44,611 nucleotides of DNA from a virus. Its lineage: Duplodnaviria; Heunggongvirae; Uroviricota; Caudoviricetes. The stretch's first letter is position 1; every line of letters starts with the position of its first letter. A model generated the notes under the pieces. It did no database searches. It was not told where the DNA came from and worked only from the letters and a program-made list of their open reading frames with translations. The stretch is taken from the IMG/VR virus record IMGVR_UViG_2703718850_000006, positions 1-44,611 of that record; one strand, written 5' to 3'. The translations under genes and the position numbers were made by a program. Positions 18,038 through 37,098 of this stretch are shown here, in pieces.

Positions 18038-19654
18038 TTACGGCATACTCATCAGCAGTTCTTCTTCCCCGTTCCCGGCAGTTCCGCCACCGGAAACGGC
18101 ACTGGCGGCATGCTGAGCCATGAAGCGCTCAAAAAGTGTTACCTGTGACGGTTGCGATACTGATGGCGCAGCTGCCAGCAGCGTTTTCGCCTGCTCCACT
18201 GTCATTCCAGGTTGTTCAGCCAGCGCCTGTGCCAGTTTTTCGCGTCCTTTTGCTTCCGGCAACGCAATAATTTGATCGCCGGTACTTGCCGTACCGGTTG
18301 CCGGTGCCGCTGCCAGTAGCATTTTCGCCTGTTCCACCGTCATTCCCGGCTGTTCAGCCAGCGCCTGTGCGAGTTGTTCACGCCATTTTGCTTCCGGAAG
18401 TGCCATAATCTGCTCGCCGGTACTTGCCGCACCGGCAACCGGTGCCGCTGCCAGTAACGTTTTCGCCTGCTCCACCGTCATTCCCGGCTGTTCAGCCAGC
18501 GTCCGTGCCAGTTGTTCACGTCCTTTTGCTTCCGGAAGTGCCACAATCTGATCGCCTGTGCTGTCAGTACCGGCAACCGGTGCTGCCGCCAGTAATGTTT
18601 TTGCCTGCTCAACTGACATTCCCTGCTGACCTGCCAGCATCTGCGCCAGTTTTTCGCGTCCTTTCGCCTCCTGACAATTCAGGATCCCCATCACGCGCTG
18701 ATTTTCCCGGGACACCGCTTCAGCAACGGTGAGATTTTTTGTTGTCATCGTATTCTCCTGTGTAACAGAGTCGTTCAGAGCAGAAACCATTACATCAACG
18801 GCATCTGCAGCATTAATCAGTTGATCAGCCAGGCCTGTATCAATGCCTGCCTGACCGTCATAAACGGCAGCCTCGGTATTCATCACCGCCTCTGAACTCA
18901 GCCCCGTATAAAGCGCCACCTTGTCGACAAACATCCGGCGGGCCTCATCAATACGGCGCTGAAAATCCGCACGCACACCTGTCGGCAACGCCTGAATACT
19001 GTTGCCGTCAACCTTGTGCTGCCCGGAGTAAATCAGCGTGATATCCACGCCTTCCTGTGCCAGTTGTTTCTCGTAACTGGTGTGCGCCATCATCACACCA
19101 ATCGAACCAATTTTTGCCGTCTGCGTGACCAGCCGACGCGTACAGGCCGCCGCCAGCAACATGGCGGCTGAACAGGCCATGTCATTACACAGCGCCCACA
19201 CGGGCTTCTGTTCCCGCAGACGGTAAATCATGTCAGCACAGTCAAACGCCCCGGCAGCCTGACCACCCGGACTGTCGATATCCAGTAAAATGCCGCGTAC
19301 ATCCGGGTCGTTCACCGCTGACTTAAGACGGGCAGTCAGACCGTCATAACCGGTCATACCGGAATATGGCCGCAGGGTACCCATTTTATGTACCAACGTG
19401 CCGCTCACCGGCAGAATGGCAATACCATTTTTCACCTGGTAACTCTTTACCGGACGCGGACCACCAGTCATATAATCGGTAACCGCCAGCTGCATACCAT
19501 CGGCATCAAGCTGAACGGCCTGCTGCGGAACGGCAAGGCTGCCCGCCCCCATCTCCTTACCCAGTGCGCAAAAGAAAACCCGCGCATAGGCGGGTTCCAG
19601 TAAAAGCGGCTCATTAAATGCCATCGCGGCAATATGTGATAAATTACAGCGCAT
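18038..19654 (-). CDS. C: head maturation protease / scaffold (C, with embedded Nu3-like region)
   Basis: 538-aa ORF; N-terminal S49/ClpP-like region matches lambda C; C-terminal third has four 46-aa tandem repeats. Confidence 0.9.
   Translation of the reverse strand: MRCNLSHIAAMAFNEPLLLEPAYARVFFCALGKEMGAGSLAVPQQAVQLDADGMQLAVTDYMTGGPRPVKSYQVKNGIAILPVSGTLVHKMGTLRPYSGMTGYDGLTARLKSAVNDPDVRGILLDIDSPGGQAAGAFDCADMIYRLREQKPVWALCNDMACSAAMLLAAACTRRLVTQTAKIGSIGVMMAHTSYEKQLAQEGVDITLIYSGQHKVDGNSIQALPTGVRADFQRRIDEARRMFVDKVALYTGLSSEAVMNTEAAVYDGQAGIDTGLADQLINAADAVDVMVSALNDSVTQENTMTTKNLTVAEAVSRENQRVMGILNCQEAKGREKLAQMLAGQQGMSVEQAKTLLAAAPVAGTDSTGDQIVALPEAKGREQLARTLAEQPGMTVEQAKTLLAAAPVAGAASTGEQIMALPEAKWREQLAQALAEQPGMTVEQAKMLLAAAPATGTASTGDQIIALPEAKGREKLAQALAEQPGMTVEQAKTLLAAAPSVSQPSQVTLFERFMAQHAASAVSGGGTAGNGEEELLMSMP
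18164..18670 (-). repeat. in-frame 138-bp tandem repeat array (about 3.7 units) inside C
   Basis: Nucleotide periodicity (gcgttttcgcctgctccac... recurring at about 18181, 18319, 18457, 18595) and protein repeats EAKGRE.LA..LAEQPGMTVEQAKTLLAAAP. Confidence 0.8.
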
Positions 19655-31282: not shown

Positions 31283-31539
31283 CAGCGCAGTACCTCCTGC
31301 ACCAGTTTTTCAAACTTTCCAACTTTGGTTTCCAGCTCTGCCACACAATCCACCAGTTCATCCACTGCTTTTTGTGCGCGGTGTTTCGCCTGCATCAGTT
31401 CCCTGAGCGCTGGCACCATATCCCGACGAATGGCATCTTTTGTTACACCTGTTTTTTCCAGTTGTTCCGCCTGTCGCAACATTTCCTGTGCCTGTTTACG
31501 TAATTGTTCAGGGGTAAAAGTCATTATCTGGTTGTTCAA
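31282..31539 (-). CDS. hypothetical protein (85 aa, predicted helical)
   Basis: ORF translationally coupled to Q (ATGA); overlaps the 3' end of the DnaB-like gene. Confidence 0.45.
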
Positions 31540-32935
31540 AAGAAACGCTCCATCTTCTGCTGTCAGTTCTTTTATTGCTGTATCTACGCGGCTGGGGCTG
31601 CTGCATTGGGGTGGAAAGAATCTGTGCGCTTTCCTGGTCTACGGGCAGAAAATGTCCGTTATAAAAACGCCGGTAAATCGTCCCCAGAGAACCGTTACGT
31701 TGTTTCGTGATATTGATTTCTGCAATGCCTCTGGCCTGCGTATCCGGGTTGTACACTTCATCCCTGTAAAGCATCAGAATGATGTCTGCATCCGCCTCTA
31801 TTTCTCCGGAATTTTTCAGGTCTGAGTTCATGGGACGTTTATTTGGTCTGGACTCCACACCGCGGGAGAGCTGACTCAGCGCAATCAACGGAAAACCACC
31901 GGATTTTGCCAGGCCTTTAAGCCCCTTTGAGATTTCACCCACGGCAAGGTCATGACGCCCCGTGGTTCGGGTTTTTATCAGCCCGAGATAATCAACCACC
32001 ACCAGTGCCGTTTCCGGATGTTTAATCAAATGGTGTTTCGTTGTTACGCATATCTCGTCAATGGTCAGGTTCGCCTGGTCCACCATCCAGATATTGCGCC
32101 CGGTCATCCGCCCCACCCCTTGTGAGAAACGCGCCCAGTCTTCGTCTTCAAAGTGAGCGACAGATTTCAGACGTGATACCGGCATTCCTCCAGCCGCAGA
32201 TACCATGCGCTCACCAATCTGGATGTTCGCCATTTCCATTGTGAACAGAAGAACACCATGCCCCTGCTCAGTCACCTTGTCGATGATATCCAGCGCCAGT
32301 TCTGTTTTCCCCATCGAAGGGCGCGCCGCGATGAATATCAGGTCTCCTGGCTCCATGCCGCCTGTTTTTGCATCCAGTTCATCAATACCGGTCATCAACG
32401 TCCTGGATTTCTCCAGCCCCTGATTCCGGCATTCAACACGGTCAACCACCTCCGGAAGCACATCATCAATATGTACCGGCTGAATAATGCCCTTTTCCGT
32501 CGACAATGAGGCCATCATGTTTTGCGCATCCTTCAGGGCATCTTCAGCTGCTTCACAGGTATGCGCATCGCGTAATTTCTGCAATGCTTCGGCCAGTGTT
32601 TTTTCTGCATCACGCAGTGCGGCATTGCGTCGCAGTGCTGCAACATAGTGTTCCAGAGATGACTTCACCCAGGTTTTACGCCCGGTATCAGTAATCACCG
32701 GGGCAAGTTCCGGCATCTCATTGCACAACAGCACAGGATCAATCACGCCGGACACACGGGCCTGTCTGCAGATGCCTGTGTAGATATCCCGGTACGGTCG
32801 TACAGAAAAAACGTCCGCCGGTAGTGTGACCAGAATATCCATCACTTCCGGATCTGCCCCACGCAAAAAGAATGCGCCAATAACAGCACCTTCCAGATCA
32901 TCGTTACGCCAGACCGGGCTTTTCTGGCTGATCAT
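31508..32935 (-). CDS. replicative DNA helicase, DnaB family
   Basis: 475-aa ORF with Walker A ARPSMGKT and DnaB-type C-terminal RecA fold motifs. Confidence 0.9.
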   Translation of the reverse strand: MISQKSPVWRNDDLEGAVIGAFFLRGADPEVMDILVTLPADVFSVRPYRDIYTGICRQARVSGVIDPVLLCNEMPELAPVITDTGRKTWVKSSLEHYVAALRRNAALRDAEKTLAEALQKLRDAHTCEAAEDALKDAQNMMASLSTEKGIIQPVHIDDVLPEVVDRVECRNQGLEKSRTLMTGIDELDAKTGGMEPGDLIFIAARPSMGKTELALDIIDKVTEQGHGVLLFTMEMANIQIGERMVSAAGGMPVSRLKSVAHFEDEDWARFSQGVGRMTGRNIWMVDQANLTIDEICVTTKHHLIKHPETALVVVDYLGLIKTRTTGRHDLAVGEISKGLKGLAKSGGFPLIALSQLSRGVESRPNKRPMNSDLKNSGEIEADADIILMLYRDEVYNPDTQARGIAEINITKQRNGSLGTIYRRFYNGHFLPVDQESAQILSTPMQQPQPRRYSNKRTDSRRWSVSFEQPDNDFYP

Positions 32936-33819
32936 GCTGCCACACCTCCGGCATGTGCACGGTAGCTGGGCCAGTTAAAGGACAACAGGTTACGGCCACC
33001 ATCCGTAACCCTGTCAGCAATACGTGGACTGATGTATGCCCACAACGCCTTCGGTGAAAGATTGCTGATCAGGATGGTTGGCAGAATGCTTTCGTACCGG
33101 GCATTGATAATTTCCTGAAGAATGGCCATTTCCGCCGCGCTACCAAACTGGACACCCACTTCGTCGATAATCAGCAGATCCAGTGATGCATAATGCTCAA
33201 TCACCTCATCCGCAGTTTTTTCGCTGTCATTCCGCCAGCAGTTTTTCACAGCCCGGGTCAGGCGCATCACGTCGGTGATCTCAACACTGGCGAGATAGTT
33301 GCGGATGACATATTTTGCCATCGCAACCGCCAGGTGATTTTTCCCGGTGCCACAACTGCCAGTCAGCACGAGATTTGTGCCGTTCTCCAGAACATCCGCC
33401 CAGTTTTCGGCATAGCGACGACAGGCAGCAAGATTTCTGGCTGCGTCAGGATTAATCTCCTGATAGTTTTCAAACTCACAGTCACGAAAACGCAGTGCAA
33501 TTCCGGCGTTATCAGTCAGTTCTTCCGCCTTCAGGGACGACAACTCCATAATCACATCGTTGATTTCAGCACTCAGGCAGTGAGGGCAGTGTGAAATTTT
33601 CTCTCTGTCCTCGCCATTACGATCCCCCCACACCAGAATATGCGTGTGATATTCGCCATGTTTTTCGCAATATCCGCGACCTTCACGCATCCGGCAGGAA
33701 CGATAAGGCCACGGTTTTTCCCCAGTCTCCGCAAACGCCATCTCAGACCGTAACTCATCCATCCGCGCCTGTAGTCTTGTTTGTTGTTCACGCAGGTTAA
33801 ACGTCATCATCGCTGTCAC
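32932..33819 (-). CDS. helicase loader, DnaC/IstB-like AAA+ ATPase
   Basis: 295-aa ORF with Walker A GSCGTGKNHLA and Walker B LLIIDEVG; ATGA-coupled to DnaB-like gene. Confidence 0.85.
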   Translation of the reverse strand: MTAMMTFNLREQQTRLQARMDELRSEMAFAETGEKPWPYRSCRMREGRGYCEKHGEYHTHILVWGDRNGEDREKISHCPHCLSAEINDVIMELSSLKAEELTDNAGIALRFRDCEFENYQEINPDAARNLAACRRYAENWADVLENGTNLVLTGSCGTGKNHLAVAMAKYVIRNYLASVEITDVMRLTRAVKNCWRNDSEKTADEVIEHYASLDLLIIDEVGVQFGSAAEMAILQEIINARYESILPTILISNLSPKALWAYISPRIADRVTDGGRNLLSFNWPSYRAHAGGVAA

Positions 33820-33820
33820 C

Positions 33821-34813
33821 TCAGAATGTTAAGTTGTCACTGGATTTACCGAATTCGTCAGACATGGCACCAAGACCAGACAGGATATCTATCTGTCGCT
33901 GTCGCCCACCTCCGGGAGCGGCTGGCTGTTGCCAGAAATCTTCGAAGTGACGATCGGGTCCAAAGAACGTCGCAGCCTGCTTCACGAACTGTGTGCCGGT
34001 ATTTCCTGTGACACGTACCCAGGCGGCATAACGCCTCACGCCATCAAGCATGGTTTCGGGTGTCACACCTTCCCTGATTCGGGCTTTCCAGGCTTTGAAG
34101 GCTGCCGACTTGGAATTACCACCAGCACGTTTGGGATATTCCTGCCAGGCCTGTTCAAATTCTGGTGAATATTCCTGTCGGGCAGAACGCGCTGGTGCAG
34201 ACGCGTCAGCGGATGCGCCAATAGTGTTTTTAGTCTCCGTTGTAATCTCTGTAGTAATCTCTGTATTTGTATCAACATTCGGCGTATCCCCTGTTCCGTT
34301 ATGACGTTGGGGGGTGTTCCGTTTTAACGTAATAGCTGTGTCGCTGACTGTGTTATTGCTGTTGCTTTCTGACGAAACAGAAGAAGGTGTGGTGATGGCA
34401 GCAATTGCCTGTGGGTTGATCCCGACAAACAAAATATTGCTGCATTTCACCCCGTCTAGCATTTCCACCGTGCGTAAATCCAGAGTAATAAACCCGGCAT
34501 CGCGAAGACGCTTCAGCGCATCTGCGGTTTCCCTTTTCCCAAAACCAAACTGCTCAGCAAACGCCTGATAGCTTCTTTGCAGCTTGTCACCCTGAAAACG
34601 CTTGCGATATCCCAGTAAAGCCCCGGTATGCTCATCCCGGACTTCTGTCGGGCGGTACCAATAAACGATCTCTGAGAGCAGGGCGATAGCGGTCGCATCC
34701 GGACGACCACTGGGTAGCCGAATATGTTTCCACCAGTTCGCTGGTGTGACATTGCCGGAAATATTAATTTGACCAATAGCTATAACTTCCGGTGTGGGGG
34801 CGTAACGACTCAT
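33821..34813 (-). CDS. replication initiation protein (O-like replisome organiser)
   Basis: 330-aa ORF at the O position; winged-helix-like N-terminus; internal direct repeats. Confidence 0.65.
   Translation of the reverse strand: MSRYAPTPEVIAIGQINISGNVTPANWWKHIRLPSGRPDATAIALLSEIVYWYRPTEVRDEHTGALLGYRKRFQGDKLQRSYQAFAEQFGFGKRETADALKRLRDAGFITLDLRTVEMLDGVKCSNILFVGINPQAIAAITTPSSVSSESNSNNTVSDTAITLKRNTPQRHNGTGDTPNVDTNTEITTEITTETKNTIGASADASAPARSARQEYSPEFEQAWQEYPKRAGGNSKSAAFKAWKARIREGVTPETMLDGVRRYAAWVRVTGNTGTQFVKQAATFFGPDRHFEDFWQQPAAPGGGRQRQIDILSGLGAMSDEFGKSSDNLTF
34230..34277. repeat. iteron-like direct repeats inside the O-like gene (candidate origin)
   Basis: Tandem GTAATCTCTGTA x2 perfect plus flanking degenerate copies; encodes ...TEITTEITTE... 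Confidence 0.5.
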
Positions 34814-35109
34814 ACAGCCTCCTTACGCGGCATAACAATGGTGTAACCCCGGGCAGGCTGGAACCGGGCTTTTGCATCAATAGTGAGCGTTGCAATTTTT
34901 CGGATACGCAGATACCCCGCCCTTTCCAGGGCCAGGGTTTCTCTGAACATTGCCTGTTTTGAACAGCAACAAAAATCGGCAAGGACCTGGTGATCAATAA
35001 CCCTCTCACCTTCACCGTCTGAAGAACCCGACATCAAAACACGCAACATAATCAGGCGCTGAATCGGATTATCGAAAACACTTCCGCATACAAACTGAAA
35101 ACAGTTCAC
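34810..35109 (-). CDS. hypothetical protein (99 aa)
   Basis: ORF ATGA-coupled to O-like gene. Confidence 0.5.
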   Translation of the reverse strand: MNCFQFVCGSVFDNPIQRLIMLRVLMSGSSDGEGERVIDHQVLADFCCCSKQAMFRETLALERAGYLRIRKIATLTIDAKARFQPARGYTIVMPRKEAV

Positions 35110-35330
35110 ACGGCACCTCCCAGGCGTTTAAACATTTTTCCGGACTGAAACACCGCCAGTGGGTAGCTAATGGTGTAGTTACGCCCCAGTAATTCACACA
35201 CAACTTTCTGGTTTTCGGTGCTGACCAGACAAACCCGCAGAACGTGACCGTTGCTGGTGGCGAACCACTGCCCCACACGGGGGCAACGGTTGTATCGGTG
35301 ATACAGGGAATTAACGATGCGGCGAATCAT
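35106..35330 (-). CDS. hypothetical protein (74 aa)
   Basis: ORF ATGA-coupled to downstream gene. Confidence 0.45.
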   Translation of the reverse strand: MIRRIVNSLYHRYNRCPRVGQWFATSNGHVLRVCLVSTENQKVVCELLGRNYTISYPLAVFQSGKMFKRLGGAV

Positions 35331-35560
35331 GGGTACACCTCCCGCACATCAGCCATGAGCATTTTGCTGGCTGTTTCCAGCGCCTGGTCGGCGCTAATTT
35401 GCATGACAGCCAGTGAATGAGGAACAAAAGCACCGGCATATTCTGTTTCACTGGTGGCGTGTTTATGCGCCATATCTGCAATCACAGAAATCTCAATCAA
35501 CGCATCCATCAGTGTCCTGATAACTGCAACGGTTGTATCCGGACGAGTGTTATTGCGCAT
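35327..35560 (-). CDS. hypothetical protein (77 aa)
   Basis: ORF with RBS GGGAGGTG, ATGA-coupled downstream. Confidence 0.5.
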   Translation of the reverse strand: MRNNTRPDTTVAVIRTLMDALIEISVIADMAHKHATSETEYAGAFVPHSLAVMQISADQALETASKMLMADVREVYP

Positions 35561-36215
35561 GGCGCACCTCCCATTGATTACGACAGAAAGTGGAGTGATT
35601 CAGGTGGGTTTCAGCTTCACGGAATGCTTCAATGCAGCTCTCGTAGTACCGCATTGTGCGCAGACTTAACCCAAGCTGAAGCATCATCAGACCATCAAGG
35701 GTGATGTAATAACCTCGCAAAGAGTCACCATAGATGTGATAAGTACCCGGTATGAAATTGCGGGTGAAAAATTCGCGCGAGCAGTTCAGGTACTCGATTT
35801 TGTCGACGATGTTCTGGTGCATGCGCTTGAAATGACAGGCAACATGCAGAGAGAAAATAACGGCCTTGCCGTTGACGACTTCGATTTTGAGGAATGGGGA
35901 AGTTGGGACAGTAGCCATGATGGCAGCCTCCGTATGCAATGGATAACTTCCACCACCGGAGCTGCGAAACTCATGGGTGGTGAACTGAACAGGGTTCGCA
36001 GTACCGGCGCATACGGAAACCGGCGAGCCTTTCGGCTCCCCTGCCCAGCCCACCATAATTCTGGCGTGCGTGAGCGCGGACGATAAAAAAGACGCTGGCG
36101 CGTCATATATCGCCGTATGCAATTCCGGGCTGCGACCCCCGGCACCCGCTTTATAAGGTGCAGAGACAGTGTAACGTTCCAAAAGTGCAGAATCAATATT
36201 CAGGTAGCGGATCAT
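35550..36215 (-). CDS. hypothetical protein, duplicated gene copy A (221 aa)
   Basis: ORF with strong RBS GGGAGGTG; near-identical to copy B over about 200 residues. Confidence 0.6.
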   Translation of the reverse strand: MIRYLNIDSALLERYTVSAPYKAGAGGRSPELHTAIYDAPASFLSSALTHARIMVGWAGEPKGSPVSVCAGTANPVQFTTHEFRSSGGGSYPLHTEAAIMATVPTSPFLKIEVVNGKAVIFSLHVACHFKRMHQNIVDKIEYLNCSREFFTRNFIPGTYHIYGDSLRGYYITLDGLMMLQLGLSLRTMRYYESCIEAFREAETHLNHSTFCRNQWEVRHAQ

Positions 36216-36871
36216 AGGTGCACCTCCCGTTGATGACGACGGAAAGCGGAATGTACCTGGACGGTTTCAGCTTCATGGAATGCATCAATACAGCTCTCGT
36301 AGTACCGCATTGTGCGCAGACTTAACCCAAGCTGAAGCATCATCAGCCCATCAAGGGTGATGTAATAACCACGCAGGGAGTCACCATAGATGTGATAAGT
36401 ACCCGGTATGAAATTGCGGGTAAAAAATTCGCGTGAGCAGTTCAGATACTCGATTTTGTCGACGATGTTCTGGTGCATGCGCTTGAAATGGCAGGCTACA
36501 TGCAGGGAGAAAATAACGGCCTTACCGTTAATAATCTCAATTTTGAGGAATGGGGAAGTTGGGACAGTAGCCATGATGGCAGCCTCCGTATGCAATGGAT
36601 AACTTCCACCACCGGAGGTTCCAATCTCACTGGTGGTGAACTGAACAGGGTTGGAACTACCGGCGCATACGGAAACCGGCGAGCCTTTCGGCTCCCCTGC
36701 CCAGCCCACCATAATTCTGGCGTGCGTGAGCGCGGACGATAAAAAAGACGCTGGCGCGTCGTATATCGCCGTATGCAATTCCGGGGTTCCAATCCCGGCA
36801 CCCGCTTTATAAGGTGCCGGAACAGTGTAACGTCCCGAAATTGCAGAATCAATATGTTGGTTGCGGATCAT
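36212..36871 (-). CDS. hypothetical protein, duplicated gene copy B (about 219 aa)
   Basis: ORF 36212..36892 trimmed to MIRNQ start; ATGA-coupled to copy A. Confidence 0.6.
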   Translation of the reverse strand: MIRNQHIDSAISGRYTVPAPYKAGAGIGTPELHTAIYDAPASFLSSALTHARIMVGWAGEPKGSPVSVCAGSSNPVQFTTSEIGTSGGGSYPLHTEAAIMATVPTSPFLKIEIINGKAVIFSLHVACHFKRMHQNIVDKIEYLNCSREFFTRNFIPGTYHIYGDSLRGYYITLDGLMMLQLGLSLRTMRYYESCIDAFHEAETVQVHSAFRRHQREVHL

Positions 36872-36888
36872 TTTGTACCTACTCGCCG

Positions 36889-37098
36889 TCAATCCGCGTT
36901 TTCGCGCTGATTCCAGTCATGAACAGCACGTTCTTTCGAATCAGGGATCTGGTTTGCGTTACAGCAAGTACATGCGACGTAATAACCATCATCGCCATCC
37001 AGAAAATATTTCACCTCAATGAGTTGTACTTCCGGATTTCCGCAGAACGGGCAAGGTTTCAGATCGACATCACCAGTTACACACGTCTTGGTTTGCAT
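36889..37098 (-). CDS. Lar-family restriction alleviation-like protein (zinc ribbon)
   Basis: 69-aa ORF with KPCPFCG...C.CC motif as I recall it in Rac Lar/RalR. Confidence 0.65.
   Translation of the reverse strand: MQTKTCVTGDVDLKPCPFCGNPEVQLIEVKYFLDGDDGYYVACTCCNANQIPDSKERAVHDWNQRENAD

Follow-up and report, generated by a model that had tools for sequence, protein, structure and literature searches.

The window analysed here is a stretch of 44,611 nt from a Caudoviricetes virus (IMG/VR record IMGVR_UViG_2703718850_000006, positions 1 to 44,611), and it carries on its minus strand a gene for a replication initiator (33821–34813) with an array of 12-bp tandem repeats in its middle part. The region 34230–34333, perhaps extending to 34377, is very probably the replication origin of this lambdoid-type Escherichia coli prophage, located in the part of the gene coding for the linker between the two domains of the initiator. 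From sequence comparison, we give a probability of roughly 0.6 to the reading that this origin is composed of true iterons and an adjoining 12-mer array that would serve, like a DNA unwinding element (DUE), for melting and helicase entry; the 12-mers themselves are probably not initiator-specific iterons. The reading is carried by the anatomy of the region, by selection acting on the DNA itself, by the co-occurrence of the same parts throughout the family, and by the position of the array, which is equivalent to that of the AT-rich region in the lambda origin. Origins that lie within the gene of their own initiator, and in which an AT-rich region comes after the iterons, are well known, and unwinding regions are usually regarded as merely AT-rich. 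For the specific motif reported here no description was found in the limited literature that could be searched, where queries with the DNA motif (both strands) and with the encoded peptides (TEITTEIT and similar) returned nothing relevant; an article on Eru-type Stx phages has no discussion of origins.

In the plus strand, GTAATCTCTGTA occurs twice, exact and head-to-tail, at 34242–34253 and 34254–34265 (...gtctccgtt GTAATCTCTGTA GTAATCTCTGTA tttgtatc...), as established by reading of the sequence and pattern search. Tandem Repeats Finder reports 34234–34265 with a period of 12, 2.7 copies, 90% matches and a score of 50. Pattern search found no further exact copy of GTAATCTCTGTA in the window, and by simple arithmetic (44,600 x 4^-12) only about 0.003 exact tandem duplications of a 12-mer are expected by chance per 44.6 kb. 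On the coding strand the exact tandem reads TACAGAGATTAC, and the general form of the unit is TACAGAGAnTAC. A first-pass annotation of this DNA had correctly described the perfect tandem and had proposed degenerate copies on both flanks, only one of which holds. The unit at 34230–34241 (coding strand AACGGAGACTAA) agrees at 8 of 11 constrained positions and, by its correspondence to the third unit seen across the family, is a genuine degenerate copy. On the other flank, 34266–34277 agrees with the unit at 5 of 12 positions by our own count; there is no convincing copy here, and the segment is better regarded as a lead-in, ACAAA, joined to the last bases of the proximal iteron. The array therefore comprises 34230–34265 of the minus strand, with the perfect units at 34254–34265 and 34242–34253 and the degenerate one at 34230–34241. 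It codes for residues 183–194 of the 330-residue initiator, in the translation ...NTEITTEITTETK..., read as ...N-TEIT-TEIT-TETK..., and the annotation had also been right in placing the repeat inside this gene. To its right (34205–34229, minus strand) follow the A-rich AAACACTA and then TTGGCGCATCCGCTGAC.

The array has several features expected of a DUE. The G+C content at 34220–34279 is 0.30, and no 60-mer of the gene is less stable than the one containing the array, which ranks 329 among the 44,551 60-mers of the window by nearest-neighbour free energy. The strands are asymmetric, since the first 10 nt of the motif on the coding strand are 73% purine on family average. The units are few and conserved, with two to four in tandem per locus (54 non-redundant loci) and 1.3–2 bits of information per position, and they adjoin the presumed initiator sites: as in a lambda-type origin, the array stands directly downstream of the iterons, at an AT-rich stretch of low stability. 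Elsewhere in the window, seven matches with two mismatches were recorded (4381, 24314, 25454, 27154, 32572, 32652 and 44546). Together with the two exact units this makes nine, where shuffling predicts 1.6 and never gave more than 5; the scattered ones are not in tandem, and they may reflect a composition or codon effect. Other kinds of element were considered for the array. No RNA family was found at 33800–35200 in Rfam even at a permissive threshold, which leaves an RNA motif without support, and sigma-70 -10 elements, an integration host factor (IHF) site and primase trinucleotides were set aside by inspection only, as they did not fit.

Selection on the 12-mer is exerted at the DNA level. 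A set of 55 distinct loci, selected by peptide pattern only, shares ACA-(A/T)AT-ACAGAGAnTAC-TACAGAGAnTAC, and their linkers are otherwise unalignable. Synonymous third positions in these loci are nearly fixed (T of AAT/TAT in 55/55, A of ACA in 54/55, G of GAG/AAG in 47/55 and T of AnT in 51/55), whereas the I/N/T codon varies freely at its second base (T17/C13/A24/G1). Codon use in the motif also departs from that in the rest of the same genes, with 90% against 40% for GAG (p = 7e-19), 89% against 40% for ATT (p = 6e-12) and 1% against 26% for ACC (p = 4e-27). In view of the conserved synonymous sites and the free non-synonymous base, an explanation at the protein level, i.e. a TEIT peptide repeat, was rejected. 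The window's own lineage gives the same picture. Among 45 distinct close relatives, none of the 34 third positions in 34230–34333 (gene positions 481–584) is polymorphic, in comparison with 62 of 160 upstream (Fisher p = 7.8e-7); when all positions are counted the values are 5/104 and 82/480 (p = 7e-4), and within the 12-mers (34230–34265) 0 of 36 positions vary. This pattern delimits the constrained core as three iterons plus the array. The suggestion of a candidate origin made in the first-pass annotation is thus reinforced by the missing synonymous polymorphism, by the location in an inter-domain linker as in lambda and SPP1, and by a non-coding plasmid cassette described below.

The surrounding gene is assigned to PHROG 270 'replication initiation protein' (E = 5e-77). 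Its C-terminal part matches PHROGs of DnaD-like helicase loader and primosomal proteins, and the 'O-like' PHROGs 391 and 678 are matched weakly (about 1e-6); there is no hit in Pfam or NCBIfam, and phmmer against PDB sequences returned nothing. The N-terminal DNA-binding domain (residues 1–140; 34394–34813, minus strand) has the hallmark EIVYWYRP. AlphaFold2 predicts the N-terminal 141 residues (alignment of 19 sequences) to be a confidently folded winged-helix domain, with a mean predicted local distance difference test score (pLDDT) of 90.5, and Foldseek of this model against PDB gave weak generic winged-helix matches (TFE/TFIIE, MarR/ArsR and the DnaD N-domain 2V79), none with E <= 0.001. 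It is followed by a linker of about 75 residues, in which the array and the rest of the origin are encoded, and by a helical C-terminal domain that starts at about residue 215. A full-length AlphaFold2 model made without an alignment (pLDDT 34.5) is unusable beyond a hint that residues 141–216 have no regular structure. The description of the gene as 'O-like' is justified by this architecture and by the PHROG assignment. It does not extend to homology with the N-domain of lambda O, which was rejected on the basis of no Pfam hit (Phage_rep_O) and an hhalign probability of 0.1%.

Upstream of the array lie repeats of another kind, the candidate iterons, all given here on the minus strand. P3 (ACGTTAAAACGGAACA, 34315–34330) is an imperfect palindrome identified both as a member of the direct-repeat family D1 and by exact pattern match, and P2 (ACGTCATAACGGAACA, 34292–34307) was found by the same family and by pattern match. 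The two 16-mers are 88% identical and 23 bp apart, and since their reading frames differ, they do not reflect a repeated peptide. P3 is invariant among the 45 relatives. P2 coincides with C-36/G-27 (numbered from the motif), which are conserved throughout the family, and only two polymorphic positions, both non-synonymous, occur in or next to it. At 22 bp from P2 we infer a degenerate proximal iteron P1 (ATACGCCGAATGTTGATA, 34270–34287), which has only 7 of 16 positions identical to P2 by our own count, is placed in the same register as the proximal iterons of the other family members ('AC N7-8 GT') and is free of synonymous polymorphism. A possible distal iteron (TTTCGTCAGAAAGCAACAGC, 34358–34377), a 75% copy in family D1 at 45 bp from P3, is weak and tentative; it is polymorphic among the relatives at gene positions 442, 443 and 450, and is thus less constrained. 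In all families, three to six lineage-specific repeats, often imperfect palindromes, directly precede the motif. Autocorrelation over the 108 nt upstream of it in the 54 non-redundant loci reaches 0.415 at lag 22 and 0.466 at lag 23, and again 0.33 at lag 44 and 0.37 at lag 45, over a baseline of about 0.25, while the side downstream of the motif is flat. For example, a Stx1 phage (L001) has five clear repeats of the type GGKTTTCCC..., spaced by 23 bp, directly upstream of its array. The upstream repeats therefore have the features of lambda-type iterons: they are direct repeats about two helical turns apart, they are imperfect palindromes, and their sequences change with lineage.

The 12-mer behaves in the opposite way, remaining constant while its surroundings change. 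Three types of N-domain carry it, which are denoted F1 (...EIVYW[YH]RP), F2 (RPIAYYPGL...Q.FYW) and F3 (PLVvnPeLA..IGLNEAI.LQQ.HYW). Homologues of the F1 domain of the window (EIVYWYRP) with 40–70% identity are distributed among Enterobacterales, Acinetobacter, Bacillota, Rickettsiales, Chloroflexota and cyanobacteria. BLASTP gave no alignment between the N-domain of the window (F1) and that of the Stx1 phage L001 (F2), yet hhalign links F1, F2 and F3 remotely (90–96% probability, E 1.7e-6 to 9e-9), and by these profiles the three make up one winged-helix superfamily with different recognition regions. This count of families rests on BLASTP, type patterns and profile comparison, since BLAST clustering by single linkage did not separate the N-domains at all. 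For the portions beyond the motif, 129 proteins gave 23 BLAST clusters, including C-domains of the lambda O type, and the neighbouring helicase genes vary as well (DnaC-like, lambda-P-like, primase-helicase, or none encoded nearby).

These data bear directly on the view, taken by the first-pass annotation, that the 12-mers are the iterons. They would then be duplex sites on which N-domains assemble head-to-tail, possibly as a second class of site beside the 22–23-bp repeats. There is something to be said for it, since the units are tandem, highly conserved and under selection at the DNA level, two of them (24 bp) make up roughly one iteron period of 22–23 bp, the motif accompanies one remotely homologous winged-helix superfamily in every case examined while the C-domains vary freely, and the stand-alone plasmid cassette keeps both types of repeat together. 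Nevertheless, we consider it unlikely. An iteron should vary together with the DNA-binding domain, whereas TACAGAGAnTAC is common to three N-domain families with differing recognition-helix regions and to many phyla, and it is the 22–23-bp repeats upstream, distinct in each lineage, that change in the manner expected of specificity sites. The Stx1 phage L001, with its unrelated-looking N-domain, its own repeats and an array of the same kind, was the first sign of this. In addition, sites that follow each other every 12 bp do not face the same side of the helix, the array takes the place of the AT-rich region of lambda and not that of its iterons, and its copy number drifts from 1 to 11 in nearly identical prophages, which is unusual for a structured initiator array. 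The annotation had correctly remarked that the unit is shorter than the lambda iterons, and in retrospect this was a clue to a different class of repeat.

The variation in copy number was found among close relatives of the prophage. The N-terminal half plus linker is present over at least 80% of its length in 221 of 5426 complete E. coli genomes, at about 92–99% identity; E. coli O111:H8 strain 8E carries a nearly identical prophage. Seven aligned relatives mostly have two units, with three in strain EC8 and eleven in STEC2018-553, always perfect and in frame, and the relatives in IMG/VR with a readable gene have 1, 2, 3 and 4 copies in 1, 55, 10 and 1 cases, respectively. As the unit is 12 bp long and in frame, replication slippage can alter its number without breaking the gene. 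Among the IMG/VR relatives (L008–L087), two close ones have an initiator open reading frame (ORF) truncated at 171 or 182 residues (...KRNTPPTS and ...TGDTPNEVA), with the break among the iterons, shortly before the array begins; these may be frameshifts or sequencing errors. Moreover, the megablast similarity of the window to several Shiga toxin (Stx) phage 'O' genes is confined to the C-terminal half and ends at 34264, inside the array, and the shared patch of 24–36 bp also behaves as a recombination joint between N- and C-terminal modules. It might be argued from these facts that the array has no origin function of its own and is a minisatellite, prone to slippage, within the coding sequence of a disordered linker, its similarity being preserved as a patch for recombination of the modules. 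The polymorphism of 1–11 copies, the breakpoint in the Stx-phage comparison, the extensive shuffling reflected in the 23 C-domain clusters and the linker without predicted regular structure (in a low-confidence model) would all agree with this. However, synonymous sites of the motif are almost fixed even where the N-domains share only 40–50% identity, the constancy of 11 of 12 positions from one phylum to another is more than neutral slippage or rare recombination events would preserve, the position of the array is fixed right after the last iteron, and the cassette persists beside iterons in a non-coding context. Such a minisatellite is therefore the least probable of the alternatives considered here.

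The distribution of the motif is wide. A pattern scan of IMG/VR with ATACAGAGAnTACTACAGAGAnTAC gave at least 119 contigs, and each match listed lies mid-way in an initiator-like ORF. BLAST of a 41-mer gave 130 named phage records, in all of which the match falls in a gene with a replication initiator, O-like or DnaD-like annotation, together with 84 plasmid records. The phages include those of Acinetobacter, Bacillus, Staphylococcus (phage 37 and phiMR11) and Klebsiella, Stx phages, Pseudomonas phage AF, Burkholderia phages DC1 and BcepIL02, a Geobacillus and a Synechococcus phage, and the hosts as a whole include Enterobacterales, Acinetobacter, Staphylococcus, Bacillus, Lachnospiraceae, Rickettsiales and cyanobacteria. 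Variant arrays are seen in Bacillus phage TP21-L (L289, 1633–1664), with CCAGAGACTAC / ACAGAGAATAC / CCAGAGACTAC at a spacing of 10–11 nt, and in Staphylococcus phage P954 (L288, about 1590–1640), with one good unit followed by CATAGAGAGACAGAC, which indicates that neither the period nor the number of units is absolutely fixed. A case outside any gene is the 8.4-kb Bacillus velezensis plasmid pBamNAU-B3a, on which three iterons spaced by 22 bp (CCTACAGGGAAA cores) and three 12-mers occur with no initiator gene there, overlapped only by a 63-codon ORF in another frame. The cassette is thus also found as an independent, non-coding cis element. The plasmid (L293, NC_022531.1; cassette at 1425–1540) is small and mobilizable, its three units have the form TACAGAGATTAC, and its iterons resemble those in the initiator genes of Bacillus and Lysinibacillus phages. 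With this cassette the plasmid might make use of a phage initiator, or titrate it.

Considering this distribution, the 12-mer array appears from sequence to be a nearly universal element of the origins served by this initiator superfamily, and not a lineage-specific one. A bolder proposal, to which we give somewhat less than an even chance, is that the TACAGAGAnTAC repeats are a previously unrecognised, sequence-specific core element of origins for the whole winged-helix initiator superfamily, in phages, prophages and plasmids whose hosts are Gram-negative and Gram-positive bacteria as well as cyanobacteria and Rickettsiales. The element would be recognised by the initiator, through a conserved surface, or by a universal component of the replisome, would position melting and helicase loading, and would have been kept while iterons, C-terminal domains and helicase partners were swapped around it.

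If the reader were a universal host factor and not the phage initiator, for instance DnaA capturing single-stranded DNA (ssDNA) in the manner of DnaA-trios, a DnaD-type adaptor or primase, conservation from Proteobacteria to Bacillota, cyanobacteria and Rickettsiales would be explained. The coding strand of the unit contains TACT (5'-TnnT-3') and the opposite strand 3'-AnT-GAT-5', and the unit resembles, as a resemblance only, the DnaD recognition element (DRE) 5'-CTACTATTACTTCTACTA-3' and the DnaA-trio consensus 3'-GAT-5' of Bacillus subtilis (PMC10201434). Indeed, the unwinding region of B. subtilis oriC likewise contains sequence-specific ssDNA motifs, and its DRE shares an ATTACT/CTAC flavour with ...GATTACTACAGAG... 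(PMC10201434). The likeness ends there. Perfect DnaA boxes are absent from the 54 loci, boxes with up to one mismatch number 9 against about 20 expected, and none is near the array in the window; as the boxes are not enriched, involvement of DnaA boxes was rejected. By inspection of the sequence, each unit offers only two trio-like triplets, with an interruption of 6 nt in the 3-nt periodicity, where the basal unwinding system has at least three uninterrupted 3'-GAT-5', and hence the array does not conform to that system. DnaD, which Proteobacteria do not have, binds through its C-terminal tail, whereas the C-domains of the proteins with the motif are variable. Primase trinucleotide preferences, for their part, differ between phyla. 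A host factor as the reader is thus improbable, much more so than the 12-mers being iterons.

Under the reading of iterons plus an unwinding array, initiation can be pictured as follows. Dimers of the N-terminal winged-helix domain would bind three, possibly five, imperfect-palindrome iterons 22–23 bp apart (34270–34330, with a weaker copy at 34358–34377), by analogy with the lambda O-some and with G38P on SPP1 oriL. Assembly of the initiator on the iterons would strain and melt the least stable, strand-asymmetric 12-mer stretch, whose conserved sequence would then be held single-stranded, most likely by a conserved surface of the initiator, similar to TrfA and RepE on DUE 13-mers (PMC4081077) and to the O proteins of lambda and Stx phages, for which binding to the AT-rich region in its single-stranded form is cited in PMC7466680. 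The C-terminal domain would finally bring in the phage DnaC-like loader and the DnaB-like helicase.

Several observations weigh against this picture. Binding, melting, ssDNA capture, helicase loading and origin activity are all what we infer for this origin. The iterons in the window are few and partly degenerate, and their own 23-bp periodicity is only modestly significant (lag-23 autocorrelation 0.39, equalled by 117 of 5000 shuffles), so that it carries weight because of the family-wide signal; the small number of good iterons is itself no obstacle, as two iterons plus the AT-rich region suffice for unwinding in lambda (as cited in PMC7466680). A period of 12 bp is neither the helical repeat nor typical of the DUE 13-mers described so far. 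The motif always accompanies one N-domain superfamily, as would be expected also if that domain bound duplex 12-mers. Furthermore, in AT-rich hosts (e.g. Staphylococcus phage 37) the motif is no more AT-rich than its surroundings, and the family-averaged dip in G+C content is modest. Easy melting alone therefore cannot explain the conservation, and a sequence-specific reader is required.

The initiator gene is embedded in a replication module on the minus strand. Immediately downstream of it is the gene for a DnaC-like (IstB-type AAA+) helicase loader (32932–33819; Pfam IstB_IS21, 4.7e-16; PHROG 50 'DnaC-like helicase loader', 7.5e-85), followed by that for a DnaB-like replicative helicase (31508–32935; Pfam DnaB_C, 1e-72). 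On the other side, a 99-residue ORF (34810–35109; PHROG 4617 'replication initiation protein', 3e-28) overlaps the start codon of the initiator gene and is a conserved part of the module, present upstream of the initiator in all E. coli relatives fetched; the initiator gene is preceded by small conserved ORFs and by Rha/antirepressor genes. Two adjacent, overlapping and paralogous genes (35550–36215, 221 residues; 36212–36892, 226 residues) of the Rha-like/transcriptional-regulator type (PHROG 995) lie upstream of the replication module and have long identical stretches in common. The last 35 or so residues of the initiator (window 33821–33930; genes 1131–2126, 1131–2222 and 1131–2114 in L004, L005 and L007) exist in alternative versions: the tail ...SSDNLTF is followed by the DnaC-like and DnaB-like genes, whereas after the tail ...IPAGFRG there is a gene for a PerC-family regulator and one for a methyltransferase. 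In L253, L283 and L290, the lambda-type C-domain has a comparable terminus, ...IPxGFRG. The version of the tail may decide whether the phage or the host helicase system is used. The strongest tandem repeat of the window (18171–18671; 138 bp, 3.6 copies, 84% matches, Tandem Repeats Finder score 659) is unrelated to the origin.

For the window, the analysis locates the prophage origin to about 100–150 bp and corrects which repeats are which. More generally, the element after the iterons is a specific 12-mer that is nearly constant across phyla, while iterons, N-domain family, C-domain and helicase-loading partners vary, which implies a conserved, sequence-specific step after binding of the initiator. 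The question of what reads an unwinding region becomes testable in E. coli prophages, Staphylococcus phage 37 and Bacillus phages. The motif can also be used to search the sequences of phages, prophages and plasmids for origins and as a flag on small plasmids with an initiator-less copy, and the array offers an explanation for a mosaic joint in the O genes of Stx phages. If the 12-mer were indeed a core element of the whole superfamily, the origins of hundreds of mobile elements could be found with a single pattern of 24 nt, it would point to a common and undescribed step of initiation, and initiator-less cassettes such as that of pBamNAU-B3a would be explained as elements borrowing a phage initiator.

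Compared with known origins, the array is similar in design to the DUE 13-mers of iteron plasmids (RK2 oriV and F) and of oriC, where a few tandem conserved units of 12–13 nt stand beside the initiator sites. On RK2 and F, it is a single strand of these 13-mers to which the winged-helix Rep proteins (TrfA and RepE) bind, and none of the repeats is dispensable (PMC4081077). The differences are that the unit sequences are unrelated and that the 12-mer is inside a coding region, is common to phyla and initiator families, and is polymorphic in copy number. Another precedent is oriL of phage SPP1, a validated origin with AB boxes for the replisome organizer G38P, where iterons and an adjacent AT-rich DUE lie inside gene 38 and the system has been reconstituted in vitro (PMC5737612). 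As in the window, short iterons are followed by the DUE, which is itself tandem (three 9-bp units), and the gene order is initiator, loader and DnaB-like helicase. However, the boxes of SPP1 are 11 bp and its DUE units are the 9-bp AACAATGAT, and no TACAGAGAnTAC unit is present in the sequence of its gene 38.

The origin of lambda, with four iterons and an AT-rich region in gene O, is the parallel that had been drawn initially, and it holds for the location of the origin inside the initiator gene, between the parts for the DNA-binding and helicase-recruiting domains. It also holds for the order along the gene (iterons, then a low-stability stretch that is A-rich on the coding strand, then the right arm) and for the imperfect-palindrome iterons about two helical turns apart. 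In contrast, the initiator of the window has an N-domain with no detectable relation to that of lambda O, its partners are DnaC-like and DnaB-like where that of lambda is P, and the AT-rich tract of lambda, CACAAAAGACACTATTACAAAAGAAAAAAGAAAAGAT, contains no copy of the unit within one mismatch. Escherichia phage PhiR42_1 (L290, 801–1766) is lambdoid (cI, cro, cII), and its O gene, which codes for an F3 N-domain and a C-domain of the lambda type, contains five iterons of the type GGTCAAAATG and three 12-mers; LygF and methyltransferase genes come after it, and no P-like gene is there. In this phage and in L253 and L283, all combining an F3 N-domain with a lambda-type C-domain, the iterons and 12-mers are followed by TCTTCGTCCGAGAATTCTGACGAATCC, which is homologous to lambda TATTCGTCAGAGAATTCTGGCGAATCC, located just right of the AT-rich region of lambda, and in the MAFFT alignment the lambda AT-rich tract falls opposite the 12-mer array. 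In the window, the right flank TTGGCGCATCCGCTGAC (34205–34221) agrees at 14 of 17 positions (MAFFT) with lambda CTGGCGAATCCTCTGAC, to the right of the same AT-rich region; this match is suggestive only, and may be a remnant of a shared right arm of the origin or chance. In O genes with a lambda-type C-domain, the array is thus by alignment collinear with the AT-rich region of lambda and not with the lambda iterons.

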